Below, piece after piece: positions 27,701-46,000 of a DNA stretch of 64,000 bases. The position numbers and the translations under genes are program-made. The first letter of the stretch is position 1; each line of letters starts with the position of its first letter. This DNA comes from an uncultured Methanosarcinales archaeon (GTDB taxonomy: Archaea > Nanobdellota > Nanobdellia > Woesearchaeales > ARS49): the NCBI GenBank assembly GCA_964572035.1, contig CAZNDX010000002.1, positions 144,056 to 208,055 on the forward strand. The letters run 5' to 3'. The notes below the pieces were generated by a model that was not told the origin of the DNA, ran no database searches, and saw nothing but the letters and a program-made list of their open reading frames with translations.

Positions 27701-27718
27701 TAACTCGTGTAAAACCAT

Positions 27719-27734
27719 ACGCAACATTTAAATA
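27719..27734 (+). promoter_or_regulatory. promoter element ACGCAACATTTAAATA (BRE-like + TATA box) upstream of pilin-like gene
   Basis: Identical 16-mer also at 30344-30359 upstream of the surface operon; TATA centre ~27 nt upstream of the inferred TSS, followed by GGAGGT SD and ATG 27785. Confidence 0.5.
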
Positions 27735-27784
27735 ACACATTCTCTAAATAAATACAAAAAGTTGTGATTTTAGGAGGTCATACT

Positions 27785-28486
27785 ATGAAAAGAGGTCAAT
27801 CAGGAATCGGACTTGTCATTCTAGGCGTTGTAGCAATCATCGCTGTAATAGGGCTCGTCTTGCTATTCACGCGAGCGGGATCAGAAGGAGCAATGACAAG
27901 CTACACAGACACATACTTCTCAAGCTATCAAGGAGTAGGAAATCCATACGGCCCAGGAGAAATGGGAATCGGAGGACAATACCCAGTTCCACCAGTATAC
28001 AGACAACAAGGCGGAGTGGTCCAAGGACCAATGACGCAAATGCCAGCATACGGCTCAGCGGCAACAACAACAGCGCAGCCACCAGTAGTGGTAATGTTCC
28101 AAGGAGACTACGGCGCAGTTGACACCACAACATACTGCTACAGAGACCTATTCTCAACAAACCAAGCAGCACCACAGGACTTTTACAGATGCTTCGTCAC
28201 AGACCCAAGAGGAGTTGAAGACCCAGCAGTAGGATTTTTCCCACCGAGCAGCCCAGCATACGCGAAAGTACCAGCTGGATTGAAAGGACGAGGAGGAAGA
28301 GTATTCTGCTTCGCACCAGCGGGCTATGACAGAGACGGCATCGTAAGCAGACTAGAAGCTTCACTTGTCAACAGACCGGACCGAAGCGACAGATGGTCAG
28401 TCATAACAACCAACGACGGAAGAAAAGCGCTATTGTGTGAAGCCGGAGCGGCCACAGCATCAGGCGACTTCATCTTCCCACAATAA
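27785..28486 (+). CDS. type IV pilin-like protein (class III signal peptide, Gly/Pro/Tyr/Gln-rich mature domain)
   Basis: MKRGQSGIGLVILGVVAIIAVIGLVLLF has basic residues, RGQ cleavage-site motif and a ~22-aa hydrophobic helix like archaeal EppA/PibD substrates; strong SD GGAGGT 7 nt upstream of ATG 27785. Confidence 0.7.
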   Translation: MKRGQSGIGLVILGVVAIIAVIGLVLLFTRAGSEGAMTSYTDTYFSSYQGVGNPYGPGEMGIGGQYPVPPVYRQQGGVVQGPMTQMPAYGSAATTTAQPPVVVMFQGDYGAVDTTTYCYRDLFSTNQAAPQDFYRCFVTDPRGVEDPAVGFFPPSSPAYAKVPAGLKGRGGRVFCFAPAGYDRDGIVSRLEASLVNRPDRSDRWSVITTNDGRKALLCEAGAATASGDFIFPQ

Positions 28487-28514
28487 ATTTTTTTATTCTT
28501 ATTTTCTTTTTCTT

Positions 28515-28862
28515 ATGAACTACAAGCAAGTAATTCTGGTTCGCGCTGATTTGAAGCTAACAAAAGGAAAAATGGCCGCGCAAGTCGCGCACGCAAGCGT
28601 AGACGCCGCGTTTAAGTCAAGTGAAACACTCGTTAAAAAATGGCGAGCGGAAGGAATGAAAAAAGTATGCCTGTCAGTAGCGAACAAAGACGAGCTTTAC
28701 AAATACGCGCAACAGGCAAAAGATGAAGGATTAACTGTTGCCATAATAACAGACGCGGGCCACACCCACCTTGAACCGGGAACAGTAACCTGCGCGGCAA
28801 TAGGCCCCGGGAAAGAAGAAGACATAGACAAAGTAACAGGCAAGCTAAAACTGATTTCTTAA
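28515..28862 (+). CDS. pth2: peptidyl-tRNA hydrolase, archaeal type (Pth2)
   Basis: VILVRADLKLTKGKMAAQVAHASV and C-terminal ...TVTCAAIGP match Pth2; start moved to MNYKQ. Confidence 0.9.
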   Translation: MNYKQVILVRADLKLTKGKMAAQVAHASVDAAFKSSETLVKKWRAEGMKKVCLSVANKDELYKYAQQAKDEGLTVAIITDAGHTHLEPGTVTCAAIGPGKEEDIDKVTGKLKLIS

Positions 28863-28927
28863 CCACACATATTCCACACACAATCAATAACGAAACGTTT
28901 ATAAATCACCCCTGAAGACACACGCCT

Positions 28928-29317
28928 ATGGTCAGTTTTAAACTCGTCATAGGAACCAAAGAAGGCAAATGCCTCCAAAAAGACGCGCAGGAAGCGGAAG
29001 CTCAAGTCTTTTTGGGCAAGAAAATCGGCGACGCCATCTCAGGAGACAAAATCGGCTTCGCTGGATATGAATTCGTCATAACCGGCGGGTCAGACTATTG
29101 CGGATTCCCTATGAGAAAAGACGTAGACGGACTAAACAGACGACGCATTCTCGCAGTTCAGGGCATCGGAATGAAGATGCAGAACAAAGGAGTCAAGCAG
29201 CGAAAAACAGTCTGCGGAAACACCATACACCCAAAAATCGTCCAAATAAACCTCAAAGTCACAACACCGGGCAAAGACCCGCTTCCATTCCCAGTAAAGG
29301 AAGAGAAGAAAGAATAA
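28928..29317 (+). CDS. rps6e: ribosomal protein S6e
   Basis: FKLVIGTKEGKC..., GKKIGD...GYEFVITGGSDYCGFPMRKDV...RRRIL...RKTVCGNTIHPKIVQINLKV conserved S6e. Confidence 0.9.
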   Translation: MVSFKLVIGTKEGKCLQKDAQEAEAQVFLGKKIGDAISGDKIGFAGYEFVITGGSDYCGFPMRKDVDGLNRRRILAVQGIGMKMQNKGVKQRKTVCGNTIHPKIVQINLKVTTPGKDPLPFPVKEEKKE

Positions 29318-29376
29318 TTCTACAAAAGACTTATAAAGTTCATTTTCTTGAAATTGACTTGATAAAAGAGTGAAAA

Positions 29377-30282
29377 ATGGTTGACCAAAGAATACAAAAA
29401 TTCATAGAACTGCACGCGCAAGCTGAAAGACTTGTTGAACAATCACAAGTGCTTGAAGCGAAACAAAAATACCTCGAAGTTCTCGCAGCATATCAAGCAA
29501 TTGACAAAAGCGATCTTGACAAAATACATAAGGACATCGCGTACGAGCAAGTAACTTCACTTTTCAAAAAAGTGAATTCAGCTAAGGAAAAAGTTCAGAT
29601 ACCAGTAAATATGATAATCGCCGCGGTGTTGGTGATTGGATTCTCAACTTTAGTGTTTTTTGATCCAAGCATAGTTGGACTCGCAGGATTTGAAGACGTT
29701 GTCCGGGAAAAAGTCAATTTGACAATAGACAGCTCAAAACTTATTTCCTTGACGCTAAAAGACAGGCCTCTAAGCTTCAAAATAAGCGGAAACATAACAG
29801 GGGGAATATCAAAACTTTACGTTAAACAAGGAGAAAAATTAGAGCTAATATTTGACAGCGAAAAAAGCTTTTTGACACAAGACGGACAATTTTCCGAAAT
29901 TTGCGAAGAAACCTGCGAAATAAATGTCGATAACAATATCGTTGAGTTATTCGCTCAAGTGGAAGGCGGAGTTTTGAATGTCAATGAAATCATTTACACA
30001 ATAAAACGAACAAGCAACACGCCCCCGCGATATGTTGGGCAATCACAAATATTCAACGCGAAAACAGGGGAAGACCTTGCTTTAAATCTTGACGAGTATT
30101 TCATTGACGACAACGGCGATAAATTGACCTACCTCTCAACAAAAGATGAAGGGCTGGAGACACAAGTTTATGACAACTATGTGACATTAAGACCAACAAG
30201 CGCGGGAACAAAACACATAATGTTCGCCGCTTCAGACCTGCAGGACGTCACAAGAGTTCCAATAACAGTTGAAGTAAGCTGA
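29377..30282 (+). CDS. single-pass membrane protein with C-terminal Ig/cadherin-like beta domain
   Basis: TM VNMIIAAVLVIGFSTLVFF after a ~90-aa cytoplasmic helical part; C-terminal segment with beta-strand periodicity (TPPRYVGQSQIF...TYLSTKDEG...VPITVEVS). Confidence 0.55.
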   Translation: MVDQRIQKFIELHAQAERLVEQSQVLEAKQKYLEVLAAYQAIDKSDLDKIHKDIAYEQVTSLFKKVNSAKEKVQIPVNMIIAAVLVIGFSTLVFFDPSIVGLAGFEDVVREKVNLTIDSSKLISLTLKDRPLSFKISGNITGGISKLYVKQGEKLELIFDSEKSFLTQDGQFSEICEETCEINVDNNIVELFAQVEGGVLNVNEIIYTIKRTSNTPPRYVGQSQIFNAKTGEDLALNLDEYFIDDNGDKLTYLSTKDEGLETQVYDNYVTLRPTSAGTKHIMFAASDLQDVTRVPITVEVS

Positions 30283-30343
30283 TTTTTTGAAATTTTGAGT
30301 GATTTTATTTAAAAATAATCAAAAAACTTATTCTCGATAACCA

Positions 30344-30359
30344 ACGCAACATTTAAATA
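30344..30359 (+). promoter_or_regulatory. promoter element ACGCAACATTTAAATA (second copy) upstream of the large surface-protein operon
   Basis: Exact 16-nt identity with 27719-27734; followed by AAGGGTGG SD-like and GTG start. Confidence 0.5.
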
Positions 30360-30399
30360 CTGTAACGCTGTTTTAAATACAATAAAAAGGGTGGATTTA

Positions 30400-32553
30400 G
30401 TGACAAAAAAGGGACAGATAACAGTCTTCATAATCATCGGCATAATAATCGTTGTCCTTATCGGAATCGCTCTCTATTTCTTCAGAACAGGCGAAATCGG
30501 AAGATTTGAAGCCGCGCGACCATCCCTTGAGGAGTTGCCACAGGAAGTCGCGCCCCTGCGAGAACAAGTACACTCTGCGATGAGACAAGTCGCTGTAGAC
30601 GCATTGCGAAGAATAGGCCAAAGCGGAGGATACGTGGACACAACATTTCTTGCGTCAAACTACTACAACCCAACAGAAGGCGACAGCGTTTCATTATTCC
30701 CTGACGGAGAACCTACAGCTTACTGGTACTACATGAAAAGCAGGAACAGCTGTGAAAGCGGTTGCGAATTCACATCCAAACGACCAGCACTTTATCGCGA
30801 ACAAGGCGGAATAAACATTGAAAGCCAACTGGATAATTACGTTTCAGAAAATCTGCCTTTATCGGTAAATTTTGAAAGCGCAGTGCCAAACTGCGATGTA
30901 ACAGTATTGGACAGTCCAGTTGTAACATCAACAATCTCTGAAAATGACGTATTCTTTGTCGCGAAATGGCAACTGCGAGCGAATTGCGGAGGAGCGACAT
31001 ATACTGTCGACGAATTTTACGTTCCACTCGATGTAAACTTGAAAGAGATTTATGACGTCGCGACAGAAATAACAAACATGCAAGCGGACAACCAAATGCT
31101 CGAACAAGCGACAAAAAACATAATCGATTTGTTCTCCCAAGTAAACAGCAAAAAACTTCCACCAACACGAGATTTGGAAATAGGAATATTTGACCCTGGA
31201 GAAATGTGGATAAAATATGACGTAACACAAAACTTGAAATCAACACTCGCTTCATACATCCCATTCATGCAGGCGTTCGGCACACGAAACTATGACTACG
31301 TCGTTTCACCAACAGACGCAAGAGACGCAGAACTTTACGAAAACATATACAACAGACACTTCTTAGTCCCACTTGAAGGATTCCATCCAGACCTCGAAGT
31401 ACGCTTCGCATACTACGACACATGGGAACCATACTTTGATTTGAACTGCAACGGACAAATATGCCGAGCAGACAGCGCCCAAGTAATGATTCCCCCATTG
31501 TTCATGACGATAAACAGATATAACTTCCCATATGATTTGAGCTATCCGGTGCAGGTTGAACTTCGCAATCCATATGCTTTGAACGGAGAAGGATACGTAT
31601 TCAACATAATGCTGGAACAAAATTTACGAAACACAGAGCCCGCAGTATTAGGCCAGCCATTCAATTTGACACTGCCAGCACGCGAACCATCATTATTCTG
31701 CGACCCGGGACAAAAAACAGCGGGACCAATAACCTTGACTGTTAAAAACGGACAAACAGGACAGCCAATACAAGACGCTAATGTCGCTTACTTGTGCGGG
31801 GAAGACATTTGCTCAATTGGAAAAACCGGAGCGGACGGAAAATTAATTGAGAAATACCCATTATGCCTCGGAGGCAATTTGCGAGTCGTAAAACAAGGAA
31901 TGCCATCCGCGAACTTACAGCTTGACTTAGTTGATGAAACAGAATATAATTTCACAGTAAACTTACAGCCTGTCCGAAATTTGAACGCAAGCATACGTAA
32001 TTATTTGTTCACAAAACAAAGCAAAAGAGGACAATGGTCTGTTGAATCAGGACCGCCAGTAAGACCGGAAGACTATCAACAAAGCATAATCACGCTTACA
32101 AAAGAGACACTCGCCAACGAAGAGCCGTTTGTTGTTGCGGCAATAATTGAAGGAGATGGAACGGCAAACCTAGAACTCGTTCCAGGAAAATACCACGTAA
32201 CAATTACAAGCCTGTTGCGCACGAACATAACAATACCAGTAGACGAACGATGCACTAAAGGCAAAAAAATCGGCGGAATAATAAAAGTTAGCGACGAAAA
32301 ATGCTACAAAGTTCCAACAGAACCGATAGTATTCGATGACACAAAACCATTCCCCTACTCAATGACACAATTCGATTGGGAAGTTACAAACTCAATGCTG
32401 GCCGGCAAAAACAGAATACAATTCAGACAATTCGTCATAGCGATAGACAAAGTCCCTCAAAATCAACGCGTGGTTGAAGACCTGACGCAAATTGAGAAAG
32501 TACAATTGTTCACGGAAGCAAGCAAAAACAGAATATTACCGGTGCTAACATGA
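30400..32553 (+). CDS. large (~717 aa) protein with type IV pilin-like class III signal peptide; paralog of 37956-40013
   Basis: N-terminus (M)TKKGQITVFIIIGIIIVVLIGIALYF (GTG start at 30400; alternative GTG 30391); shares motifs with the 685-aa paralog (GQSGGYVD/GTQGGYIN, L.NY..E.LP..VNF). Confidence 0.75.
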   Translation: MTKKGQITVFIIIGIIIVVLIGIALYFFRTGEIGRFEAARPSLEELPQEVAPLREQVHSAMRQVAVDALRRIGQSGGYVDTTFLASNYYNPTEGDSVSLFPDGEPTAYWYYMKSRNSCESGCEFTSKRPALYREQGGINIESQLDNYVSENLPLSVNFESAVPNCDVTVLDSPVVTSTISENDVFFVAKWQLRANCGGATYTVDEFYVPLDVNLKEIYDVATEITNMQADNQMLEQATKNIIDLFSQVNSKKLPPTRDLEIGIFDPGEMWIKYDVTQNLKSTLASYIPFMQAFGTRNYDYVVSPTDARDAELYENIYNRHFLVPLEGFHPDLEVRFAYYDTWEPYFDLNCNGQICRADSAQVMIPPLFMTINRYNFPYDLSYPVQVELRNPYALNGEGYVFNIMLEQNLRNTEPAVLGQPFNLTLPAREPSLFCDPGQKTAGPITLTVKNGQTGQPIQDANVAYLCGEDICSIGKTGADGKLIEKYPLCLGGNLRVVKQGMPSANLQLDLVDETEYNFTVNLQPVRNLNASIRNYLFTKQSKRGQWSVESGPPVRPEDYQQSIITLTKETLANEEPFVVAAIIEGDGTANLELVPGKYHVTITSLLRTNITIPVDERCTKGKKIGGIIKVSDEKCYKVPTEPIVFDDTKPFPYSMTQFDWEVTNSMLAGKNRIQFRQFVIAIDKVPQNQRVVEDLTQIEKVQLFTEASKNRILPVLT

Positions 32554-35500
32554 AAAGAACAATACTACTGAGATATTCCGCGATTTTCATGGCTATCTTG
32601 ATAGTGACGCTTCCAGTAGCTTTCGCTCAAGAGTTGAATGTGAACAAGTATTCAGGCATGGACAACGCGAACGGGGCGATAAAGTCAGAGGATAATCTGA
32701 CAATCGAGGTTCGCGCGCAAATACCAGGCGACCCAACAATAATGAAAGACCAAGTGCGCCTCGTTTTGGGAACAGAATTTTTGACATTCGACAATTGCGT
32801 AAAAACAGCGGAGCCAAACTATTACACCTGCACATTTGAAGACGAGGTTGAAGTTTTTGAAAGCCTTCCCTTTTCCATAGAATTATGGAATGATGACAAC
32901 CAAAAAATTAAAACAGCCAATGCCAGCATTATAGTTGACGCCCTCGCGCCGACTGTCAAAAATTTCAGCGTAACGCCAGAAATGAGCAACGGAAATGTTG
33001 ATATTTCTTTCAAGATTGAAGATTATGGACTAAATTCTGCCGTCGCGGCGCAATGCTCAGGAGTAAAATCAGTCCTGATTGTTTCACAGCAAGGCGATGT
33101 GAACACAACAGTCGCGACAAGAACAGGAACATCAGGAACTTGCCTGCTTGAAGATGAATTCCCAGTCACACTAACGACATCAGGAGAACAGACGATTTGT
33201 CTTTACACAAAAGATTTCGTCAACTATGACGCGCCACCAAAATGTGTCGAAATTGTTGTAGACCACACACCGCCGAACATTTCCGCAATAAGCATAGTTA
33301 ACCACTTAGGAGATGATATAACTCACGTTCACTCAGGATACGAAATACCGGCGAATATTCACGCTCTGATAACGGATGACGGACAAATTGACACAACACA
33401 AGTATTCGCCGACTTTAACAAGTTAAGCCCCGCTTACGGGATGAATGCTCCTGCAGATTACAATACGGGAAGCATTTACACTTGGTCACAAATACCGGTC
33501 AAAGAAGTAAGTCCGTGCAGCCTGACAATTAAAGCAACAGACACTCTTGGAAACACCGCGGTGCAAACAATCGACTGTTCGATAAGAGCTGACGACGCGG
33601 CGCCAATATTTGTAAGGCACAAACCGCAAGCTCTGCGCGGAAATATCTCACTCTTAGGATATGATACTCCCTTTATCCTTGAATTCGACGAAAAAGACAA
33701 CACAGGCGCAAAGGGAATTGGAATGAGCTTGATTAATTCGTATTTAGATATGTCAGATATTGGCTTGACAAACTTTGAAAGAGCAGACACTTGTTATGAA
33801 ACAGAAGGAACAAAATGGGAATGCGCCTGGTATGTAAAACCTCCCGCATCAGTATCGCAAGGAGCATACACTTTCACACTAGTAGAAGGAACATCGGACG
33901 ACCTTGATAACTTCGCAACATTCGGTCAAACATTTGACGTCGTTTATGACAATGACGGGCCGGACGGAGCAGTGATTAAAGAATTCGCGATAATCTCACA
34001 AGAAGAAGCGCCTTTGAAAGAAGGAGCGATAATGGGCGACAGTTTATCATTCGTCGTCAGCGCGGCGAACTTCACATCAGTAACGGCGAACTTCTCAGAC
34101 TTCGGCGGAGACCAAAAGGCAACTCCTGTGCAGGTGGGTTGCAGTTCAGACAACAACACAGTGGACTGCGAATTCGTGCAACCAATAGAATTAGAAGGAC
34201 CATACACAGGAAATGCGACCTTCACATTCGTAGATGACGCCAATAACAGAGCGGTAGTTTCGAAACAAATAGAAATTTACGGAGTAGGCGGCGAAACATC
34301 GGCAAACTTCTGGACAGTACACAGCATAGACTGCACGCCAAGACTGATAGATAGAGAAGTGGCGAGCGCAAGACCTCCATACGTTTCTTGCAGAATAACT
34401 TTGAGAACGCCACGAACGGATATAACACCATTAAGTGTGGTCTCGTCAACAGATCCATTGACTGATTGTACAGGAAATACGACGTACCTTCGCGATGTTT
34501 ATGTAACGAATGATATTGTCGGTAAAAAAGATCCTTACTTGTTTTATGTACTTGAACCAACTAATTACGACATAAATCAACTAAATATTTCATGCCCACT
34601 AATAGTTCGCTCACTAAAAACAAATAGCACAGGGAAATTTGCGATACCAGGAAGTCAAACAATCAAAGTTAACACGACATTTGAGTTCTACAACAATCCA
34701 GCAGGAGAAGCCTTTGCGAACGTAGACAGCAAAATACAGCGCTCGCTAAACAACGGTTTCGCAATGCAAGACTGGCTAGGGCAATTACAAAAGATTTTGT
34801 TTTATGCGCAACAAATATGCACATTATTCAGCACGATATCTGTTGTGTTGAATGCGATAGCGCAAATAACCACTGCGTTTGGAGTAACAGGAAGCGTACT
34901 CAAAAAGGTGCCGTACGGACAGGCAGCAGGTCAATCACTTGAAAACACCGCTTCAACTTTCTGCAATACTGAAGTCACACTTGAAGATAGCATTTATGGC
35001 GAAACCGTAAAGCCAATACTAAACACAATTTGCGGACTCGCAACCTGCCAGTCAGCAGCAGATGACAACTGGTCACCAGACATAAATTGGCTTGGAGGAG
35101 GAGTCCCATGGTGTAGAGGAGAATTTAACCTTGGAACATGGGGAATTCCGGCACTAGAACAATTGGGTGCTTCATCACAAGATGTCAATATTCGCGACTC
35201 GCTAGTTCTAAGCACTGCGTGTTTGTGCCTGCCAGGAATAATTTATAATTTGGAAAAAATGAGGCAAATTTACTGCTTTGAAGCTGTATGCTACCACGAT
35301 ATGGTCAAAGAAAACGGTTATCCAGTAAGCTTCTGCAATGGACAATATAACTATATGTGGTGCACTTTCGTGATTAATGAAGTATTCGCTGGAGCGCCAT
35401 TCGTTGGACTATTCAATAGGATGATGGACATGGCGCTAAGCATAGTAAGCAATCCATTAATTGGAGTCGGAATCGCTTTTGGTGCGTATTGCCGAACAGC

Positions 35501-35702
35501 CTGTCCAAAATTCCCTGCAGATGGTGCGGTTGCTTCAGCGGAATTTATGGCATGCTCGGCATACAAACTATTTGGAGCACTAATGGAAGGAGTCAGCGTA
35601 TTCTGGGCAATGGCGGAATCTGGAAGCGAATTCTGGAGACCAGTACAAAATAACTATTGCTCAAGAGCTGAAGATATACGGGACGATTATGAGGAAGATT
35701 AA
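32550..35702 (+). CDS. 1050-aa secreted Cys-rich surface protein with C-terminal hydrophobic/Cys domain shared with the 2280-aa protein
   Basis: Signal peptide MKRTILLRYSAIFMAILIVTLPVAFAQ; ATGA overlap with upstream gene; C-terminal ...ACLCLPGIIYNLEKM... aligns with ...RCICLPAVISYLQLW... of the giant protein. Confidence 0.8.
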   Translation: MKRTILLRYSAIFMAILIVTLPVAFAQELNVNKYSGMDNANGAIKSEDNLTIEVRAQIPGDPTIMKDQVRLVLGTEFLTFDNCVKTAEPNYYTCTFEDEVEVFESLPFSIELWNDDNQKIKTANASIIVDALAPTVKNFSVTPEMSNGNVDISFKIEDYGLNSAVAAQCSGVKSVLIVSQQGDVNTTVATRTGTSGTCLLEDEFPVTLTTSGEQTICLYTKDFVNYDAPPKCVEIVVDHTPPNISAISIVNHLGDDITHVHSGYEIPANIHALITDDGQIDTTQVFADFNKLSPAYGMNAPADYNTGSIYTWSQIPVKEVSPCSLTIKATDTLGNTAVQTIDCSIRADDAAPIFVRHKPQALRGNISLLGYDTPFILEFDEKDNTGAKGIGMSLINSYLDMSDIGLTNFERADTCYETEGTKWECAWYVKPPASVSQGAYTFTLVEGTSDDLDNFATFGQTFDVVYDNDGPDGAVIKEFAIISQEEAPLKEGAIMGDSLSFVVSAANFTSVTANFSDFGGDQKATPVQVGCSSDNNTVDCEFVQPIELEGPYTGNATFTFVDDANNRAVVSKQIEIYGVGGETSANFWTVHSIDCTPRLIDREVASARPPYVSCRITLRTPRTDITPLSVVSSTDPLTDCTGNTTYLRDVYVTNDIVGKKDPYLFYVLEPTNYDINQLNISCPLIVRSLKTNSTGKFAIPGSQTIKVNTTFEFYNNPAGEAFANVDSKIQRSLNNGFAMQDWLGQLQKILFYAQQICTLFSTISVVLNAIAQITTAFGVTGSVLKKVPYGQAAGQSLENTASTFCNTEVTLEDSIYGETVKPILNTICGLATCQSAADDNWSPDINWLGGGVPWCRGEFNLGTWGIPALEQLGASSQDVNIRDSLVLSTACLCLPGIIYNLEKMRQIYCFEAVCYHDMVKENGYPVSFCNGQYNYMWCTFVINEVFAGAPFVGLFNRMMDMALSIVSNPLIGVGIAFGAYCRTACPKFPADGAVASAEFMACSAYKLFGALMEGVSVFWAMAESGSEFWRPVQNNYCSRAEDIRDDYEED

Positions 35703-37073
35703 ATGAAAAAAGCAATATTCACGATAGGAGTAATTTTAATGTTCTCCATCATAGCAATAGCTCAGCCGGTTTATGATGATGTTCCAATAGATGGAGGTCA
35801 AAGTCCAAGTGAGTCTGCACCAATTCCACAAACAACACCTCCTCAAACACCCGCTCCAACCGCTTCTCCTGCTTCTCAGCCATCGCAAGGACTTCCATAT
35901 AATCCGTTCCCATCAACAATTCCACACAAACCAACAGGATACAAGATAGGAAAAGAACAGAAATATTCTGGCTATACTGGATTTAATATGAACCCGCAGA
36001 CAGGACAAAGAACAGGATATACCTACTATGGTACGGATGGAAGCAGCGTTGCCAGAGTAAGTCCCAGCGGTTATGAAACTTGGGACGGAAGCAAATGGAC
36101 AACGACAACATACCAAGGAATGAGAGACAAAATTTTGGAGTACGAAAATCAATACGTTGACAAAACGGTAACAGATCCCGCCCAAAGAGAAGCGCTCAGA
36201 GGAAAAGCGAACGAAAACGCCAATGACGCAGCAAAACGCATGGAAAACCAAGCAGTAGCCGGAGGATACGTATCCCAGTGCGCGAATCCCTGGAGATGCA
36301 TGGGCAACATGATGAAAGCATATGATGAATACAGCGGAATTGGAGAAGCAACAGCGATGTTTTTCCCATCGTATCAACAATGGACCAGAGATGTCAGAAG
36401 AACAATCAGCCAAACATTCTGCGGATTTGTAAGCATACAAAACTGCTTTGAGAGTTTGATATGCGGTGCGGTGTTAGATATCAGTTCAGGAAATGTAATC
36501 TCAGGAAATGTTCTTCTTGGAAGAAATGCGCAAGGACAGCCAATTCCAGCAGGACATTTAAGTGCTGAGAGGTCGTTACCAATCGTTCTGAAAGGATTGG
36601 AAAGAGAACTTCTACTTGATATAATAGGCACTGAAATCGCAGTCATAAACGGTAAAGTTGTAAACATTTCTGAAGTTAACCTTGAAGAACTACCTGCAAC
36701 AGAATTAAGACTTTACAGAATACAATACAGTATAACAAACAGTCACACGGATAAGGATTTGAAATTTAACCTTGAGGTAAAAGGACAAACAACAAGAAAC
36801 TTCTTTTCAAATGATAAAACCTTGAAGCCAGGACAAACGGCGACACAAACAATAGAAGTGTACAGCGCGACAAAATATGAAGATATTTGTTTAACTTTTA
36901 ATCCGTCATTGCCGGCAGGAACAGGAAGCACTTTAATAGTAGCTCCAAAAATGGTAAGCCAACTCTGCAAACCAATAGTTGAATACGCGGGAGGAGCTAC
37001 CTCAGTAGGAAATTACGCCGCTCAAGAAAAAGAATCACAACAGAGCGGAACACCACAAGGGGGATTCATATGA
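35703..37073 (+). CDS. 456-aa secreted protein with Pro/Thr/Ser-rich linker
   Basis: Signal peptide MKKAIFTIGVILMFSIIAIAQP, then PQTTPPQTPAPTASPASQPSQ linker; start abuts upstream stop (TAAATG). Confidence 0.75.
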   Translation: MKKAIFTIGVILMFSIIAIAQPVYDDVPIDGGQSPSESAPIPQTTPPQTPAPTASPASQPSQGLPYNPFPSTIPHKPTGYKIGKEQKYSGYTGFNMNPQTGQRTGYTYYGTDGSSVARVSPSGYETWDGSKWTTTTYQGMRDKILEYENQYVDKTVTDPAQREALRGKANENANDAAKRMENQAVAGGYVSQCANPWRCMGNMMKAYDEYSGIGEATAMFFPSYQQWTRDVRRTISQTFCGFVSIQNCFESLICGAVLDISSGNVISGNVLLGRNAQGQPIPAGHLSAERSLPIVLKGLERELLLDIIGTEIAVINGKVVNISEVNLEELPATELRLYRIQYSITNSHTDKDLKFNLEVKGQTTRNFFSNDKTLKPGQTATQTIEVYSATKYEDICLTFNPSLPAGTGSTLIVAPKMVSQLCKPIVEYAGGATSVGNYAAQEKESQQSGTPQGGFI

Positions 37074-37945
37074 ACACTAAGCTAATCTCGATTGCAGTTA
37101 TAATAGTCGCGGCCGCGGCATACTTCATGAAAATACCTGGCGCAATAATACTTGGAGCCATAGGAATACTTATGTTATTGCTCCCAACAAAATACATTTC
37201 AGACTTAATCACAAAATACTTCAACGTGCTCAAACAATACAAAAAATTAGCGTCAATAGTCGCTTACGACGCGCTATTCTGGGCGGCAGTATCTGGTTTT
37301 GCTTTAATTTATCAAAATTTATTTGAGAAAAAACTTTTGGCCGAATACGCCGAAACAGGATTCAGCAAAGAAGCGCTGCTTGACCCTGCCTCAACGGCGG
37401 TACTCGCAGAATCACTTCGTGGAATAATAATTTACACTTTAGGTGGACTCGCAATATTCGTTTTGCTAACATTTATCGCGTATACGATTAGCAGATATTA
37501 CATCTGGACAGAATTATCATCGCAAAAACGCAGCAAAAAAATATTTTGGGCCTATGCCAGATTAACAGGCGTATGGTGGGCGATATTAATAATTCCCGCA
37601 GTTGTAATAATAGCAGCCGCGACAAAAACACCACAGGTGGCTGCTTTGGTTTTGATATTTTTTATCGCCGCAGGACACTTCACAAACTTCCTATACACAA
37701 ACTTAGTCAAAACAAGCAAAGCAGGACAATCTCTCACAATGGGAATAGCTATGGGACTTTCCAAAGTTCATAGGGTAATTGTTCCATACGCGATAATATT
37801 CGCCACATGGTGGGCGCTAAGCACAATAGCAAGCATAGTTAGTTATATGCACCAAGGAGCTGCCACAGCAGTAACGCTTTTATTCGCACTAACAATACTA
37901 GCGATAAGCAGAGCATACCTATACACAATCATCAAATCATTGTAA
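37070..37945 (+). CDS. polytopic integral membrane protein (about 7-8 TM)
   Basis: 291 aa, repeated 20-aa hydrophobic stretches; ATGA overlap with upstream gene. Confidence 0.7.
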   Translation: MNTKLISIAVIIVAAAAYFMKIPGAIILGAIGILMLLLPTKYISDLITKYFNVLKQYKKLASIVAYDALFWAAVSGFALIYQNLFEKKLLAEYAETGFSKEALLDPASTAVLAESLRGIIIYTLGGLAIFVLLTFIAYTISRYYIWTELSSQKRSKKIFWAYARLTGVWWAILIIPAVVIIAAATKTPQVAALVLIFFIAAGHFTNFLYTNLVKTSKAGQSLTMGIAMGLSKVHRVIVPYAIIFATWWALSTIASIVSYMHQGAATAVTLLFALTILAISRAYLYTIIKSL

Positions 37946-37955
37946 AAAAGAGGAA

Positions 37956-40013
37956 ATGAAAAAGAGCAACAGAAAGGGCCAATTAACGGTCTTCATAATA
38001 ATAGGACTCCTTATACTGATTAGCATCGCGACTATCATTTACTTCACGCAAGTCCGAACAACAGCTCCATTACAGAGAGTAGTCGCGGTACCGGAAGACA
38101 TACAACCAGTATACGACCACATAGCCCAATGCTTGAACGACATAAGCAAAAGAGGACTTGAACGACTGGGAACACAAGGCGGATACATCAACATGCCACC
38201 ATACATTTCAAACAATCCAAACGCGCACATCAAAAATGATGCGCTAGGAGTATCACAAACAGCACTATGGTACTACGAAGGCGAAGACAGAACACCAACA
38301 ATAGAATTCATGCAAAAAGAATTACAGGATTACATCAAAGCGGAACTGCCAGCGTGCGTAAACTTCATAGCATTCGCGGACAGATACGAAATACAAGTCG
38401 CGTCGCCACTAACAAGCATCGTGACATTCACAGACAACCAAGTAATCGCTGAAGCAAGATGGTTGCTGAACATTAAAGTCGGAGAAAAAATAATACAACA
38501 CGACGAATACGTCGCGCAGCACAACCTCGCCTTCGCGCCAATAGTCCGCCTCGCGACTGAAACAATGAAGTATGAAAATGAAAACGAATGGTTTGAAGAT
38601 TTGACAATACAATTATTGACATCAAATCCAGAAATTCCATTCGACGGTCTAGAATTCTTCTGCGGAACCAAAAAATGGCAAGTCAGACAAGTTAAAAGTG
38701 AAATACAAAACACGCTCGCAACAAGCATGCCTCTGATAAGAATAGCGGGAACAAACTATCCTGCTCCACTCGCGTCACCAAGCGTTTACAGAAATCTCAA
38801 AGATGAAGCGGAAGATATACGCGACGACTTGAACGAAGGAAAAGAACCGGATTGGCCAACAAACGTGCCAGCGGACGTTTTCGAAATGAACAGAATGATG
38901 CTCGACATAGGAATACCATCAACAAACTTGGTCGCGGGATTCGTCTACCAGCCACACTGGACAACATACATGGACGTCCAGCCAAGCCAAGGCGGAATGA
39001 TGTCAACAGCACAAATGAAAGGACCCAAACAATACCTGAGATTCCTATGCATGAACCAATGGCATTTCACTTACGACTTGATTTATCCAATAAAAATGAT
39101 GATACGAGACAACTCGGCGTTTGACGGACAAGGATACATATTCAACTTCGGATTCCCAGTAATAATAGAAGACAACGCCGAAAGCAGAAACGTATTCGGA
39201 GTAAGAAGATTTGACGTGCCAATAGAAGGAGTAGACTTCTGCGACAGAATAGGAACAGAAGCGCTTGACGTCCGCGCGACAGGATTCGTAGAAGGAGGTT
39301 TCACCGCGGAAGAGTTGGCTGACGTAAACATAACATATTCCTGCGGACCGCAAGCCTGCGTCCTTGGAAAAACATACAGCGACGGAAGCGGAGCAATAAG
39401 ATTACAAACACTTCTCCCAGAAGGATGCGCAAATCCAGGAATAACAGGAACAAAAGACGGATACTTATCAGACACGAAATTCGCGCTAACAAACAGAGTA
39501 GACTTGCAGCTAACAAGACTCAAACCAATGAACATTACACTACAAATAGTTCCATACTACGAAGTTGTAAATCCACAAAACCCCATGAGCGCATCCCAAC
39601 AAAGATGGCTTGACGAGCAAACAACAAGCAGATTCACACAATCAATGAAAGCGACAGTTGCCATCAGCGCGACAAACAAAAACTATGACCAATACTTGAT
39701 GTATCCATTATCAAAAGATGAAAAGGACGCTGGACTTGGCGGAAACATTAACTTAATTTATGACACAGCGCAATACGACATTGACGTAATATTATTCCAA
39801 GGCGACACGCCAATCGGCGGATACCACGCTGAAAACATCACAATAACGTACGATGAACTTGCGGCGACAAACAACATGATATTAAACGTCGTTGAATACA
39901 GACCAAAACCAACACAGCCATACCAAGAAGCGGGAATGTTCATATTCCTATACGAAAGAGGAGAAAAAGACGGACAACCGTACTATTTGGCGCTTAAGCC
40001 AACATTCACATGA
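37956..40013 (+). CDS. 685-aa protein with type IV pilin-like class III signal peptide; paralog of 30400-32553
   Basis: MKKSNRKGQLTVFIIIGLLILISIATIIYF; SD AGAGGA upstream; shared motifs with first paralog. Confidence 0.8.
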   Translation: MKKSNRKGQLTVFIIIGLLILISIATIIYFTQVRTTAPLQRVVAVPEDIQPVYDHIAQCLNDISKRGLERLGTQGGYINMPPYISNNPNAHIKNDALGVSQTALWYYEGEDRTPTIEFMQKELQDYIKAELPACVNFIAFADRYEIQVASPLTSIVTFTDNQVIAEARWLLNIKVGEKIIQHDEYVAQHNLAFAPIVRLATETMKYENENEWFEDLTIQLLTSNPEIPFDGLEFFCGTKKWQVRQVKSEIQNTLATSMPLIRIAGTNYPAPLASPSVYRNLKDEAEDIRDDLNEGKEPDWPTNVPADVFEMNRMMLDIGIPSTNLVAGFVYQPHWTTYMDVQPSQGGMMSTAQMKGPKQYLRFLCMNQWHFTYDLIYPIKMMIRDNSAFDGQGYIFNFGFPVIIEDNAESRNVFGVRRFDVPIEGVDFCDRIGTEALDVRATGFVEGGFTAEELADVNITYSCGPQACVLGKTYSDGSGAIRLQTLLPEGCANPGITGTKDGYLSDTKFALTNRVDLQLTRLKPMNITLQIVPYYEVVNPQNPMSASQQRWLDEQTTSRFTQSMKATVAISATNKNYDQYLMYPLSKDEKDAGLGGNINLIYDTAQYDIDVILFQGDTPIGGYHAENITITYDELAATNNMILNVVEYRPKPTQPYQEAGMFIFLYERGEKDGQPYYLALKPTFT

Positions 40014-43000
40014 AATTGAACAAACTAAACAGACACATATCAATAATGCTTATCTGGTTAGTAATGACTCTGCCATTCGCTTCAGCTCAAGCGACAAGCC
40101 CGCCAACAGTCACAATATCAAACGTTCAACTAAACCACGGCGCGCAAACAGTCATAACATGGCAAACAAACGTTTTAGCCAACGGATACGTTGAATGGGG
40201 AAACACAAGCGCTCTAGGAACAAACACGACAACGCCGCAAGGAACACTACACACCGCGACTTTGAATACAGTCGCTGGACAAACATACTATTATAGGGTT
40301 GTAAGCTGCGAAACAACCTGCGCAAGCACACAAACAGACTCGTTCACAGCAGGACCGCTCTTCATTACGACAAGCATAGCGCCATACGTCAGAACAGCAA
40401 ATATAGACATACCGGGAAGAACAAGAGCAGGAGCAAGAGTAGACCTTTACGTGAACTCAGTAATGGTTCGCTCACAAAACACTTCGACGGAAGCGTTTGT
40501 TTTCAGAGGAGTGCAATTACAACCGGTAAATAACGTAACACTTCGAGCATTCTACAATAATGAACAAGCTGAAAAAAGCTTCACATTGCGGGTTGACAGT
40601 GAACCGCCAAGAATAACAGTTGATATGCCAAGAATCGCGACACAACCTTCAGTCGTCGCGCGGGTCACAACAACAGAACCGGTAAACATCAGCGTAACAA
40701 CAAGAAGGGTTGACGCGTCGCCGCCAGGAAGACCAACGGCGCTGACACTTCAAGGATCCACAAACAACAGAGTTGAATTAGCGTGGACAAACGCAAGCGG
40801 AGCAACAGAATATTTGGTGCGAAGAGACGGAATAATAATCGGCAAAACAACATCAAACACATACGCGGATACGACTGTTGGCGCGGACAGACAATACGAT
40901 TATGAAATACTCGCCGTGAATGCCGCGTGCATGCAAAGCGAGCCATCTGCAACACTCGCAGTAACAACACCAGGCGGAACAAACACACAAGGGCCAGTTG
41001 TTGAAGTAAAAGCGAGCTGTGAAAGAGACGCGCAAAGCTATTTGGTAACGGCAAGCGCGGATATAACAGTAAATTTAGTTGAAGGCGAGAATTTGGTTAC
41101 GTTCACCGCAACAGACGCCGCAGGATTTGAAAGCATAATAGAAGAAACAGTAATTTACGATTTGGCGCCACCACAATTCTTGGAACAAAACTTGGACTCG
41201 CTGACTCCGTCGTATTCTCCGCAAGTAGTGGTTCGCGGTAAACTATCAGAAAAAGGAAGTGTTACCGTTTTTGTAAACGATAGAGCGGCGGCGACAAAAG
41301 CGACAGAAGACGATGGAAGTTTCACAATACCAGTACTTCTCGACAGAAGCGTGCAAGTAAAAACGGACGTGCTGGCAGCAGGATTGGATACCGGCGTCGG
41401 ATACAGCAACAAAATGCAACTAGAAGCGACAGACGCAGTAGGACAAAAAACAAGAACAGAACAAGTAGACGTCGTATACGCAATCTGCGGATTCGGAACA
41501 GACTTTGACATTAAAATATCAAACCCAGTCCCGGACGTTCTCAACCCAAGATTAATGCACGAAGGACTGCAACAACTAGGAATATCATTCTCATACGAAT
41601 ACAAAGGAGGAAACAACGCGGTTGTCGCTCCCGGAGCAGTTCGCGTAACACCAATACAATTGGCGCCAGCAGTCGCGAAAGAATATGATAATAGTTTAGT
41701 TACAATAAGTTCTCAGACACAGGGCAAAAGAGGCTCGCAAAACGCAGGAGAAGGATACGTACAAGTAACATTTACTCCAATAACAGACCCGTGGACACAA
41801 TTCGGTGAAGGCAAAAAACCAAACAATCCAACTTTGTACGATATAGAAGACGCGATAGCAAGCCACAGAATGGCGTACAAAGATTTGAAAATCAAAGAGT
41901 GCAAAACGCCGGGAGTCGGATGCTACCGGTTGTTCATGAAATTAGAAATACCATACCAGATATCAACACAATCACAACAGTATTTACCTGAGCAGCCATT
42001 CGCAGGACAATTACAACCCGAGAATAAAGTCCAACAAACCTGCATCGATGTTGAAGTCGCGATAGACAGAAGAATAGACCCTGCGCATTTACCACAAGGC
42101 TTCTTGAAGGGAATGAGCGAAACATTAGGAGCAATAATAGAAGGAGTCGACACAGTATTGAAACCACTCAGGACGATTTATCAGTATTTATTCTACACTT
42201 GCATCGCGGGATGGTTTATTAGTTATGTTCCAACATTCCTAGAACAATACAATTGCAAATATTCGGTAATTGCTACCGCGGTCAGTGGAGAAGGCAAATT
42301 CGACGAGGGGGTCGCCGCGATAAACGCGTGCAAGACAGAATATCAAGGACAACAGGAGAGTTTGGACAACTGCGAAGCCTGCGCGACATGGAAGAAAAAC
42401 AAAAAATGGGTAGCGGACGTTTACAAACAAATCTGCGACAGAGTCGCGTGCCCAGCGGCGCCGTCATTGCAACACTACATAAAATCACGAGCAAATCAAC
42501 AGTTAACAGCAGTCAATGCACCAAAAGCAACTGCTCAAATGACTCAATACACCGCGAAAACGGGCGGCAAATTGTATCAAGGCTCGGATTGCGCGGCGTG
42601 GATGCAGGAAAGAAATAAACAAATAACTGGACAGGACGCTAAGAAACCGCCAAGTCTAGTTTTCACGACATCTGAAATAGAAGGAATTTACAATGACTGG
42701 CTAAAACACCGCTCAGACACAAGAACAGCAGATGAACAACAAGGAGTAGTCAACTGCGCGGCGCCACACCCAGCGACACCCGAGTGCTGCGGATATGAAT
42801 ACATGGACCAGTGGGGCTCAGCCTGCGGAATCGGAGGAACACTTGTTGGACAAGGAATAGATACGTTCGATGAAATTCAGGAAAGCACGTGCCTAGCGAT
42901 GGAAAAAGCGAACAAGCAACAAATCGGTTCAGGCGATACTGCGGTCTCGTGCGGCGGAATATCAAACGCTCTCGCAGGATTCTGCACAGCGGAAGGAGGA

Positions 43001-46000
43001 ACGCCGCTAGATTACATCAAAGTCACAACATTCAGCGGAAGCGCGACAGAAAACACAGGAAAACTCGCTGAACTTGGAATAGGAAAAGCTTCAGACCACT
43101 ATTTGTACATATTACTCGTTCCACAAACAGGAGCAGGAGCAACACAAGATTACTCGATTAAATTAGGATACATCGTTGAAGACATAGAATTCGCCCAAAC
43201 AGAACAAAGCAAAACAGTTTCTGACGAAAGCAAATATGACGTAAACAAAAGAATGAGAGCGGTTGAATTGCAAGGATATGATGTTCAAAAGTATTTCTCA
43301 CAAGATAATATTGACAAATATTACGCAGGCAATCTCAACACCGCCGTCTATACTGATTTGGCCAATACACTTTGCGCCGCGGCAGATAAAGGCGGTAACT
43401 GTGTAAACGGCAAAACAATGTATGACGCTGTGATAAACAAAATAGGAAAACCCGATCAGGAGTATATTATCGACCCGAGAAAAGGAATAATCAACGCGAT
43501 AAGATGCATTTGCCTGCCCGCTGTAATAAGTTATTTGCAGTTATGGAGAAACATTATGGCTGCTGTCAAAAACTGCGTTGACACAATAAGATTCACTGGC
43601 GACGGAAACCCAGGAGTCTGTCAAGAAATGATATCCAAATATGCTTGCGACTTGATTTACGAAGCTCTTGCCTGTTTCACTGAAAAATTCAGCGTCGGAG
43701 GAGGAAGACCCGGAGGTCGAGACCTCTTTGGAGCGTTGACATCAGCAGGAACGGAAATGAGCAATGACATCCAAGGAAGATATGGAGGAACAACAACATA
43801 CCAAGCAATGTTCACCCAAGGACAAATCGTAAAGTCTGTATGTAATTTCGCGTTTACTGGAACTTGGAGCTTGGACTTCGCGGCAATAGCGGATTCAAGC
43901 ATAGATGACTTCCCAATCGAAAGCCAGAGCTTCCTGTACCCATGCGACAGAAGATTCGTAAGTTTCAACCCGCTAACTTCTCCGCCAGGAATGACCACCT
44001 GGATATACCATTTCGGCGTATTCATCGCGCCAGGAGCGGACATTGACATAGAATTCGCTTTGAAATGCAGCGGCGGATACAAATGCAGCGAAAACGACGG
44101 ATTCGAACGCGGCAAATGCGACTGTGACACAGAAAAAACACTTTCAATCGCTCCAACAGACTTGCCAACAAGAGCAACCAAAGGAGAAATAGTTGACAGC
44201 GCGGTATATTATACTGTAGCAGGAAACCCTGGCGGAACGATACGTTATGATAAGGCAGTTCTAACATACAAATGGAAAGACAGCACAGGAAAGGACGCAA
44301 GCAAATCACTAGAGTGCAGAATCAACCAACTCGGCGGAGCTCCAAACTTCTGCAGATTTGACATGTTTAGCGGAGCGTATAGATGCCAATTCGGACCTGA
44401 ACAGGGCGGAATACAACTCGGAGCTCCAGAAGTAAGCTATTCGCACAACGTATCAGTAACAGCGGGAAGTCCGCCACTCGGAGTCTACGCATTAAATGAA
44501 AACTTGAACATCAACGTACCAATCAGACAAGCGTATATGGGAGAAGTCTCAGAAACCAAATTCCTCCAATGGGAAATATTAGGACCGGGAGGAGCGATGG
44601 TCGCCAACAATTCAGCAAGCATAACAAAACTTGACACCAACGGCGACTACATGAAAAACATTGGCTCAAGCACATTCGATCCAAAAGTTCCACTCAAAAA
44701 AGAATGGTTCGGAGGCGCGACATCGGCCGGCGGACAAACAACAACATCAACATACTGGCACACAGGACTAACAACCCCAACAACAGGAAACTGGATAGCA
44801 AACGCGCAGTACCTTGAGAACGGCGCAGCGTACCAAGGAAACAAACAGTTCGTCGTTGAAAAAGAAGGAACAACATACCGAGTATACAACGCAGGACCAC
44901 AAACAGGTGTGAACGCCCAAGTAGGATTCACAAGCAAAGGAACAAGCGCGTGCACACCAACAGTATTGCCGAATACACTTGACTGCACAATTGCCCCAGG
45001 CGCAAACGAAGTCAACCCGCCAACAAGAAGATTACTGGTAACATTGGGACAAACATTCCCGGCACAGCCAAAAATACAGGCGCACATAAACATCGGACTA
45101 ATAACGGCATCCGGAGACTTCTGCACGGGAGACAACAGATACAAACCAGTAACGTTCACAGTAAAAATCGCGGCGTACGATGGAAACGAACTCGGACAAA
45201 TAACAGACATGATCGCGATAAATCCAACAACAAACGAAGAAGCGAGAACAACAGCCACGTTCCAAGCAATGTGCGTAGACGCGACGGACCAGAAGTTCAA
45301 GGATATGGAAAAAATGGTTGGAACAATGTGTCCTGTTGGCTATGCTGATGGCACAACAACCGGATGCTTCGCTCAAAAACCAAGCGATGAATGGACTCCG
45401 GTTCAGGCAAGTTGCGTAACAGGAATCTGCTATCAGGCAAAGCAACAAATTACAGTTGACAATGCGCCTTATGTTCCTAATATGAGAGTCGAACTTAAAC
45501 CCGTCAATGTGGTCTTTAAATTACCATTATTAAAAGAAACAGATTCTGACAAGCCAACCATAGTGCTCAGCGCAGGAATAATGGGAATTAATTTGGATCC
45601 GCAATCAGACACTTTCTCAAATAATATGAGAACAACAACGTTTAATTTTGACACTTCAACTTTAACAGCACAAACTCCTCTATTCTTGAGATATAAACTA
45701 ACAAATAAAGAAGAAACTTACACTCCATTAAATTTCACTTATGCCCAAACAATTGATACGGCAAAAACTCAACTGCTTAACGACCTCAAAGCAGACCTTC
45801 TTAAACAAGCAGATCAAAACATACAAACTCCTACACATGGAAGATACTTCAAAATACTCGCGGCAAGAAATCCTGCATCTTGGAGCGACAATAACAAAGC
45901 AGACGTCTTGAATAGAGTGAATGGCGCTCTCGTATCATATCAAGCAATGAAAATAAAACTTGACACGGCGATGAACGCGCTTACAGCTCAGGATAGGGCA

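Follow-up and report, generated by a model that had tools for sequence, protein, structure and literature searches.

The exact 16-mer ACGCAACATTTAAATA occurs twice in the 64-kb window (the whole stretch of DNA analysed here), at 27719–27734 (P1) and 30344–30359 (P2), both on the + strand, and each copy is most probably an ordinary core promoter, consisting of a BRE and a TATA box at the optimum of the organism's general consensus, rather than a dedicated regulatory site. Both copies are intergenic, that at P1 lying 50 nt 5' of the ATG at 27785 of the gene for a small protein and that at P2 40 nt 5' of the GTG at 30400 that begins an eight-gene operon (Table 1). The repeat had been pointed out in an earlier note on this DNA, and it is indeed exact and limited to these two copies, with none found in the rest of the window or in approximately 15 kb of same-species flanking sequence (approximately 79 kb of the organism's genome scanned in all).

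Table 1. Features of P1, P2 and related promoters in the 64-kb window, and the genes downstream
Feature	Position	Strand	Remarks
Deoxyhypusine synthase promoter, TCGCTACATTTATATA(CTGTA)	4686..4701	-	18/21 match to P2, vs 17/21 for P1–P2
P1 BRE, ACGCAACA	27719..27726	+	AA 27723–27724 at -34/-33; TAC..AA invariant in 8 orthologous promoters; fits high-information positions of the generic matrix
P1 TATA box, TTTAAATA	27727..27734	+	-30 to -23; invariant in 8 relatives; top matrix score in window
P1 A/T-rich proximal element and initiator, TAAATACAA	27749..27757	+	Predicted TSS A 27756–27757, from leaderless genes
P1 Shine-Dalgarno, GGAGGT	27773..27778	+	Predicted leader about 28 nt; invariant in 8 relatives
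Small membrane-anchored protein gene	27785..28486	+	233 aa; N-terminus MKRG-QSGIGLVILGVVAIIAVIGLVLLF, C-terminus FPFPQ
P2 conserved upstream block, AAAACTTATTCTCG	30323..30336	+	P2 only; unchanged in 6 close relatives, not present in L146 or L147
P2 BRE, ACGCAACA	30344..30351	+	AA 30348–30349 at -34/-33; 5' part TAGT or TAGC in relatives
P2 TATA box, TTTAAATA	30352..30359	+	AACATTTAAATACT invariant in 6 relatives; TTTATATA in L146 and L147
P2 A/T-rich proximal element (TTTTAAATA) and initiator	30371..30382	+	TTT.AAA conserved; predicted TSS A 30381–30382, from leaderless genes
P2 SD-like, GGGTGGA	30389..30395	+	Predicted leader about 18 nt; AAAAGGGTGGA conserved in close relatives
Eight tightly packed or overlapping genes	30400..48221	+	717, 1050, 456, 291, 685, 2280, 261 and 201 aa; all exported or membrane proteins
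Third promoter of the same class, TGGTAACATTTAAATA(CTG)	55459..55474	-	Predicted to drive lipoprotein-like cluster 49875–55422 (-)

By length alone, a 16-nt repeat in 64 kb is not above chance. The window contains two exact direct repeats of at least 16 nt, and identical 16-mer pairs numbered 2.4 on average in second-order Markov simulations, 79 % of which had at least one. Hence, the numbers are those that a functionless chance repeat would predict, and it is the placement that is non-random: both copies are in promoter position, oriented with the downstream gene, and have the top scores with a promoter matrix, and both have been retained in orthologous regions with diverged flanks, which contradicts a chance origin and makes it extremely unlikely. 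When up to 3 mismatches were allowed, 5 sites were found in the window vs 1.49 expected, a count reached in 4 of 100 shuffles.

The position of the 16-mer relative to the transcription start site (TSS) was calibrated using the leaderless genes in the window, of which there are at least 10, with the start codon 22–23 nt 3' of the TATA box. This spacing places the predicted TSS at about 27757 for P1 and about 30382 for P2, and relative to these positions the 16-mer extends from -38 to -23; the AA of GCAACA falls at -34/-33 and TTTAAATA occupies -30 to -23 (centre at -26.5), so that the whole 16-mer would be accounted for as BRE and TATA. Both promoters thus have an 8-bp A/T-rich box approximately 26–27 nt 5' of the predicted TSS, and the AA pairs fall where the BRE part of the window matrix has the most information. 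The BRE definition and the textbook positions of archaeal promoter elements are from PMC8553660. The proposal that a TATA box is preceded by ACGCAAC in the position of a BRE was therefore borne out, both by this calibration and by conservation in relatives, and the SD-like sequences followed by a start codon were found as described, in short predicted leaders. A second block common to P1 and P2, TAAATACAA (27749–27757 and 30374–30382), which was not remarked on in the earlier note, lies 15 nt 3' of each 16-mer in the same register and covers the predicted TSS.

P1 and P2 do not differ in architecture from the archaeal BRE-TATA core promoter that depends on TBP and TFB in Sulfolobus, Pyrococcus, Methanocaldococcus and Haloferax, which has the same A/T-rich box of 8 bp with its centre near -26/-27, the same purine-rich BRE directly 5' of it with AA at -34/-33, the same A/T-rich region near -10 with a pyrimidine-purine initiator, and the same mix of leaderless and SD-leadered transcripts (predicted here). 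What is local is the BRE flavour, C-[G/A]-[C/A]-A-A-C. Judged by sequence, P1 and P2 are previously unannotated instances of this known promoter type, in an uncultivated Woesearchaeota-type DPANN genome.

On this model, TBP would bind the 8-bp TATA box and TFB the element directly 5' of it, and the direction of transcription would be set by the BRE, the TATA core (ATTTAAAT) being a palindrome. Transcription would begin with the A of TACAA, approximately 23 nt 3' of the TATA box. P1 would produce a monocistronic mRNA for the small membrane-anchored protein (oligo-T tracts are found after its gene, at 28487–28514), and P2 an eight-gene mRNA of roughly 17.8 kb for exported proteins, both with short leaders that include a Shine-Dalgarno sequence. 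The two promoters would be identical because both are at the optimum of the general BRE/TATA consensus, and both are presumably strong promoters of abundant envelope proteins. Abundant archaeal surface proteins (S-layer, pilin and archaellin genes) have strong consensus promoters, and P1 and P2 resemble these in combining a near-perfect BRE/TATA for exported proteins with a predicted SD-bearing leader. A second TATA-like box at 30372–30379 was considered as the main promoter, with GTG 30400 as a leaderless start, and was rejected; it has a poor BRE, a spacing of 20 nt vs 22–23 nt, and degenerates to TTTAAAA in relatives. An Rfam search of the window recovered no RNA family, and a scan for sigma-70 promoters and intrinsic terminators, which is irrelevant for an archaeon, was at background level.

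The evidence that the 16-mer is generic comes from a matrix trained on 28 other promoters in the window, with the P1 and P2 copies left out. Its consensus is nC[G/A][C/A]AA[C]n-TTTAWATA, and the 16-mer has the first- or close-second-choice base at 16/16 positions. When both strands were scanned (128,000 positions), the two copies of the 16-mer scored highest, at 16.8 bits, and nearly all of the 20 sites with at least 12 bits were 5' of genes. Near-copies are found 5' of the genes for deoxyhypusine synthase, a MarR regulator and MoxR, and of the lipoprotein cluster, whose promoter has a strain variant, AAGCAACATTTAAATA, that matches at 15/16 positions. Though the identity of the two copies was read in the earlier note as a sign of co-regulation, with the proviso that a generic promoter consensus would count against it, the 16-mer is the best match to just such a consensus, and that reading is not supported. 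Some similarity of P1 to P2 beyond the generic consensus may nevertheless exist, as among 210 promoter pairs compared across 46 nt these two are the most alike (29 matches vs a mean of 17.7; next pairs 27), the expectation of 16/16 identity between any two of approximately 29 promoters is only about 0.002 (under an independent-position matrix), and a shorter 12-mer, AAC[AC]TTTA[AT]ATA, was seen in approximately 150 kb of the clade only 5' of envelope-protein genes.

Both promoters are retained in the orthologous intergenic regions of syntenic Woesearchaeota relatives. At P1, 8 relatives, the least similar with approximately 33 % protein identity, all have TAC..AA..TTTAAATA and GGAGGT unchanged, though the TAAATACAA block is not kept in L024 or L025. 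At P2, 6 relatives all have G.AACATTTAAATACT between diverged flanks, and the distant relatives L146 and L147 have only similar purine-rich tracts (AAAAAAAGGTGG and AAAAGGGTGA) 3' of the TATA box. The 5' ACGC of the P2 copy is replaced by TAGT in L024 and L025 and by TAGC in L146 and L147. Deep conservation is thus limited to G-AAC-TTTAWATA, the non-generic bases are not conserved at both promoters across species, and 16/16 identity between P1 and P2 is confined to the sub-lineage that comprises the window, L020/L021 and L022; in the outgroups P1 remains ACG[C/T].

This distribution is what would be expected if P2 had taken on the P1 sequence in the recent lineage (window, L020/L021 and L022), through gene conversion or because a promoter cassette was duplicated, and the TAAATACAA block provides a second identical stretch in the same register. 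However, the 14-nt spacer between the two blocks matches at only 1/14 positions, ruling out a recent duplication, the flanks are unrelated, the TAAATACAA block itself varies among strains (L006 and L022), and only 2–3 point changes are needed to make the P2 copy identical, of which one brings a base to the C of the generic consensus. Such an origin of the P2 copy is, hence, very unlikely. A hexamer, ATTCTC, shared by P1 (3' of the TATA box) and P2 (5' of it) was dropped, as a 6-mer is expected approximately 30 times in the window.

The cross-archaeal sample was obtained by scanning GTDB genomes for the exact 16-mer, which gave at least 120 matches, the source species not being among those listed. 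Among the matches listed, 43 are archaeal, mostly DPANN, and the identical 16-mer is in promoter position of genes for the proteasome beta subunit, RNase HII, Rpp14, Gar1, VapB, CopG and an AAA ATPase. In one genome, CAYVTQ01, the 16-mer is found twice, and the two downstream genes are unrelated. From their N-termini, only approximately 8/32 of the downstream ORFs in other archaea, again among the matches listed, look exported. The bipartite pattern (16-mer, N14, TAAATACAA) had 0 matches in metagenome contigs, P1 and P2 themselves not being recovered, so that the collection is evidently without this species and uninformative on a regulon.

A different reading would be that there is a dedicated cell-envelope promoter class, defined by the extended BRE/TATA either alone or together with the initiator block. 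It would be read by a specific TFB/TBP paralogue or activator, and would place the lipoprotein cluster and the giant operon under common control with the small anchored protein. P1 and P2 being the most similar promoter pair is consistent with this, as are the finding that all three window promoters with AACATTTAAATA precede genes for exported proteins, the restriction of the 12-mer class to envelope genes in relatives, and the fact that no more than a few kb separate the small gene from the operon even in distant relatives. However, this synteny also spans ThrRS, PTH2, S6e, S19e and L31e and is not specific to the two loci, the enrichment was noted post hoc, and the promoters of the relatives are orthologous and thus not independent. 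The 16-mer is also the generic consensus, its distal ACGC is not retained at P2, and the identical sequence is found 5' of housekeeping genes elsewhere; neither in the approximately 79 kb of the organism's own genome nor in other archaea is the motif confined to functionally related genes, and its reading as a regulon marker is not supported. A dedicated envelope class is, therefore, unlikely. The AAAACTTATTCTCG block upstream of P2 is a candidate regulator site, and it is a correspondingly speculative suggestion that this block, or a TFB paralogue, makes P1, P2 and the lipoprotein-cluster promoter a lineage-specific Woesearchaeota class coordinating a pilin-like small protein with the giant operon. 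Were a promoter class reserved for surface structures, it would link a widely conserved small protein to a giant surface operon, which could help a DPANN symbiont to attach to its host. With P1 and P2 as ordinary core promoters, the finding matters little in itself, being that of an uncultivated DPANN archaeon with textbook BRE/TATA promoters, for which many leaderless mRNAs, together with SD-leadered mRNAs for envelope genes, are predicted. The promoter matrix and the TSS rule (3' end of TATA + 23) should be usable in annotating such genomes.

It was also suggested that the small protein is a major pilin and the large proteins are minor or tip subunits, and these roles are unproven. Searches of Pfam and NCBIfam gave no match to families of pilins or class III signals such as DUF361, nothing significant was found for the small protein or the operon proteins in Pfam, NCBIfam or PDB sequence searches, and none of the roughly 55 proteins of the window is a prepilin peptidase, assembly ATPase or platform protein. 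In the EppA-type type IV pilins (DUF361) of Methanococcus maripaludis, Glu at +5 is used as a criterion (PMC3875500); here, position +5 is G or F. The AF2 model of the small protein (mean pLDDT 59.6) has a helix at 5–34, a disordered segment at 34–94 and a small alpha/beta domain, and the best Foldseek match of this low-scoring model to the PDB had E=0.59. On this model, the small protein would differ from the EppA-type pilins in its disordered linker of approximately 60 residues after the helix and the lack of a pilin fold match; the large proteins differ in their size of 685–717 aa. Like those pilins, the proteins have a short basic signal with Gly as its last residue, followed by Gln at +1 and a hydrophobic helix (MKRG-Q..., VTKKG-QITVF... 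and RKG-QLTVF...), that is, an N-terminus of pilin type, short and charged, ending in G/A and followed by a hydrophobic helix of approximately 20 residues. The proteins of 717 and 685 aa, which are paralogous and have the N-termini KG-Q(I/L)TVFIIIG, fit the strict FlaFind pattern; the small protein does not. In 46 homologues of the small protein, K2, G4, Q5 and the helix are invariant or nearly so.

The earlier note had described a single 16-nt sequence in front of both a small-protein gene and a large operon, and an exact search of the 64-kb window bore this out. ACGCAACATTTAAATA is present in exactly two copies, both on the + strand, with the 3′ end of copy 1 lying 50 nt before ATG 27785 of the gene for a 233-aa protein (promoter P1) and that of copy 2 lying 40 nt before GTG 30400 of the first operon gene (promoter P2). 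An SD-like sequence is found just 5′ of each start codon. P1 and P2 also have a second block in common, TAAATACAA, at an identical distance of 15 nt 3′ of each copy; the intervening 14 nt agree at 1 position only. By length the repeat is unremarkable, as second-order Markov simulations gave a mean of 2.4 identical pairs (at least one pair in 79 % of simulations) and the window contains two exact direct repeats of at least 16 nt. The non-random feature of the 16-mer is its location. Besides ACGCAACATTTAAATA, one exact 16-nt direct repeat is present, CAAGCTGTTCAGCAGT, with copies 42 nt apart within a coiled-coil protein gene.

Coordinates of promoter elements, genes and other features in the window
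Feature	Position (strand)	Sequence	Remark
16-mer, P1	27719–27734 (+)	ACGCAACATTTAAATA	
16-mer, P2	30344–30359 (+)	ACGCAACATTTAAATA	
Second common block, P1	27749–27757	TAAATACAA	
Second common block, P2	30374–30382	TAAATACAA	
SD-like, P1	27773–27778	GGAGGT	
SD-like, P2	30389–30395	GGGTGGA	
P1 spacer motif	27738–27744	CATTCTC	between TATA box and TSS
Second box, P2 leader region	30372–30379	TTTAAATA	20 nt before GTG
Block upstream of P2	30323–30336	AAAACTTATTCTCG	8–21 nt upstream of BRE
Deoxyhypusine synthase (DHS) promoter		TCGCTACATTTATATACTGTA	18/21 identical to P2 (P1 vs P2: 17/21)
MarR-type regulator promoter		AAACAATATTTAAATA	
MoxR ATPase operon promoter		TCACAATATTTATATA	
Lipoprotein-like cluster promoter		TGGTAACATTTAAATACTG	
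Starts 22–23 nt past TATA box (examples)	28928, 4662(-), 48452, 25805, 7949(-)		
16-nt direct repeat	13416–13473	CAAGCTGTTCAGCAGT	
Coiled-coil protein	13219–13737 (-)		
DprA (DNA-processing protein A)	24835–25767 (-)	TTTATATA box	2 kb upstream of small-protein gene; box precedes ATG 25692, the likely true start
ThrRS	25805–27700		
Small protein, 233 aa	27785–28486		
PTH2	28515–28862		
S6e	28928–29317		
301-aa membrane protein	29377–30282		
Operon	30400–48221		eight genes, tightly packed or overlapping
Lipoprotein cluster	49875–55422 (-)		four adjacent genes

A promoter matrix was trained by EM on aligned sequences 5′ of the other genes in the window, with P1 and P2 left out, and yielded the generic motif nC[G/A][C/A]AA[C]n, then TTTAWATA. 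In at least 10 genes, including those for S6e, DHS, NOG1, FKBP, ThrRS, MarR, Trm1, GNAT and polyprenyl synthase, the start codon lies exactly 22–23 nt past the TATA box; they are thus leaderless, which calibrates the transcription start site (TSS) at the TATA 3′ end + 23. SD-bearing leaders of 18–40 nt were seen at the envelope genes and the MoxR operon. By this calibration, the predicted TSS is the A of TACAA at approximately 27757 (P1) and 30382 (P2), so that the TATA box spans −30 to −23 (centre −26.5) and the AA of GCAACA occupies −34/−33. An archaeal TATA box and TFB-recognition element (BRE) canonically lie at just these positions (PMC8553660), so all 16 nt are explained by 8 nt of BRE and 8 nt of TATA box. 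The earlier note's reading of a promoter with a sequence in the BRE position was right. TAAATACAA spans the A/T-rich −10 region and initiator. The second perfect TTTAAATA, in the P2 leader region, has a poor BRE and decays to TTTAAAA in relatives; its most likely role is that of the A/T-rich −10 element, not of a second promoter.

At each of the 16 positions the base is one that the generic matrix ranks first or a close second, and when all positions on both strands were scored with it P1 and P2 ranked first at 16.8 bits, followed by the S6e promoter at 15.7 bits. Twenty sites on the two strands of the window reached at least 12 bits, nearly all of them directly 5′ of genes. Exact matches to the 16-mer, sought in one genome per GTDB species, numbered at least 120 loci. 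Among the matches listed 43 are archaeal, mostly DPANN, with the 16-mer in promoter position and the start codon often 21–22 nt downstream. Genes following it, again among the matches listed, include those for proteasome beta (three genomes), RNase HII (two), Rpp14/Pop5, Gar1, VapB antitoxin, CopG and an AAA ATPase, and the CAYVTQ01 genome has two copies before the unrelated genes for Rpp14 and a membrane protein. Approximately 8 of 32 downstream ORFs in the matches listed encode membrane or exported proteins, judged from N-termini read by eye, which is roughly the proteome-wide share. Because the downstream functions are mixed across archaea, the 16-mer is a recurrent optimal archaeal promoter and not a marker of a single function. 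It is the best form of this organism's general BRE–TATA consensus, and P1 and P2 are a fresh instance of a well-known kind of promoter. The proposal that identity of the two copies signals co-regulation or a regulon is thus unsupported, since the sequence matches the generic matrix and precedes unrelated genes elsewhere. The matrix, the TSS rule and a conserved small-protein family are by-products.

Some signal is left over that could point to a lineage-specific class of envelope promoters. An exact 16/16 match between any two of approximately 29 promoters has an expectation of approximately 0.002 (our calculation, independent-position matrix), and among 210 promoter pairs compared over 46 nt none is as similar as P1–P2 (29 matches; mean 17.7, sd 3.6; next pairs 27). 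Across approximately 150 kb of window, flanks and relatives, AAC[AC]TTTA[AT]ATA is found only before envelope-protein genes, namely the small protein, the operon, the lipoprotein cluster (15/16 in the strain variant L149) and a 298-aa membrane protein (in the relative L147), though this enrichment is post hoc and most of the promoters counted are orthologues of one another. We consider such a class improbable. It is simpler to suppose that the promoters of abundant envelope proteins are the strongest and the closest to consensus. From the sequence, the BRE–TATA consensus heads two, probably three, envelope gene units predicted to be strongly expressed. The four proteins of the cluster, lipoproteins or secreted proteins, resemble one another in their N-terminal regions (lipobox-like ...AC, then PPxPP...P.WA..K[YF]); the first gene is driven by a third AACATTTAAATA promoter, and L149 has a variant of 730 aa whose promoter reads AAGCAACATTTAAATA.

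The locus is syntenic in the Woesearchaeota relatives L020–L025 and L146–L148, with small proteins 88 % to 31 % identical. L146 and L147 keep the order ThrRS, small protein, PTH2, S6e, 301-aa, 715-aa and ~1030-aa protein (window 25805–35702) with a small protein just 31–33 % identical to the window's, and L148 retains only ThrRS, small protein, PTH2 and S6e, with insertions. An extra ~205-aa protein is inserted in some relatives. At P1, TAC..AA..TTTAAATA, GGAGGT and ATG are invariant in 8/8 sequences while the remaining intergenic DNA diverges; at P2, six close relatives show no change in G.AACATTTAAATACT, the A/T-rich −10 region or the SD region. The distal bases in relatives are ACGC, ACGT, ACAT or ACAC at P1, and at P2 TAGT (L024, L025) or TAGC (L146, L147, where the TATA box is TTTATATA). 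Hence, as P1 and P2 differ in these bases outside the window's own sub-lineage, the 16/16 identity is recent. P2 needs just two or three point changes to reach it, one of which (A to C, position 2) is toward the generic consensus base carried by 61 % of promoters. Recent duplication of P1/P2 was ruled out by the unrelated spacer and flanks. The TAAATACAA block is unstable: L006 has TAAATCCAA, L022 has TAAAACACA, and L024 and L025 differ yet again. The strain variant L006 (4170–4292; sample DRR859893) has 10 differences from the window in the 120-nt P2 intergenic region, none in the 16-mer or AAAACTTATTCTCG, three in the TATA–TSS spacer and one in TAAATACAA. This pattern shows purifying selection on two functional core promoters, with no shared specific site shown. 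AAAACTTATTCTCG, a possible regulator site that neither P1 nor the distant relatives carry, is invariant in the six close relatives, a conservation equal to that of the core promoter.

The window also encodes PTH2, ribosomal proteins S6e, S19e and L31e, NOG1, DHS and Trm1, among other archaeal genes, and homologues of the small protein bear Woesearchaeota names; the organism is accordingly a member of the DPANN archaea. The family N-terminus is nearly invariant over 31 residues (MKRGQxGIGLVILGVVAIIAVIGLVLLFTRA) and FPFPQ at the C-terminus is fully invariant, the remainder being ~36 % identical across the family. The small protein has a [KR]G-Q motif similar to EppA-type archaeal pilins, in which Gly is at −1 and Gln at +1 (PMC3875500), but is without Glu at +5. 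Its AlphaFold model has a helix (5–34), a disordered linker (34–94) and a small alpha/beta domain. Searches of PDB gave neither a fold match nor a sequence relative, and no Pfam/NCBIfam pilin family was matched. The linker is of low complexity (~60 residues) and the small domain carries Cys. In the operon, the 717-aa and 685-aa proteins are paralogues (E = 7e-34) with the N-terminal motif KGQ[I/L]TVFIIIG; both match the FlaFind pattern and neither has a known domain. Sec-type signals are present on the remaining large proteins. Two modules in tandem seem to make up the operon, the first with proteins of 717 aa (class III-like), 1050 aa (Sec signal), 456 aa and 291 aa and the second with proteins of 685 aa (class III-like), 2280 aa (Sec signal), 261 aa and 201 aa, and the large Sec proteins of the two share no detectable similarity. 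The window contains no gene for a prepilin peptidase, assembly ATPase or platform protein. What stands of the pilin-like description is a plausible class III-type N-terminus; major-subunit and tip-subunit roles are speculation.

Two other DPANN genomes have the identical 16-mer (L055, about 2279–2294 +; L100, 5549–5564 +) before genes for 164–168-aa proteins that have just the N-terminal helix in common with the small protein (~61 % identity over 31–33 residues) and unrelated C-termini. Judged by sequence, the small-protein relatives look like a modular family around a conserved N-terminal helix.
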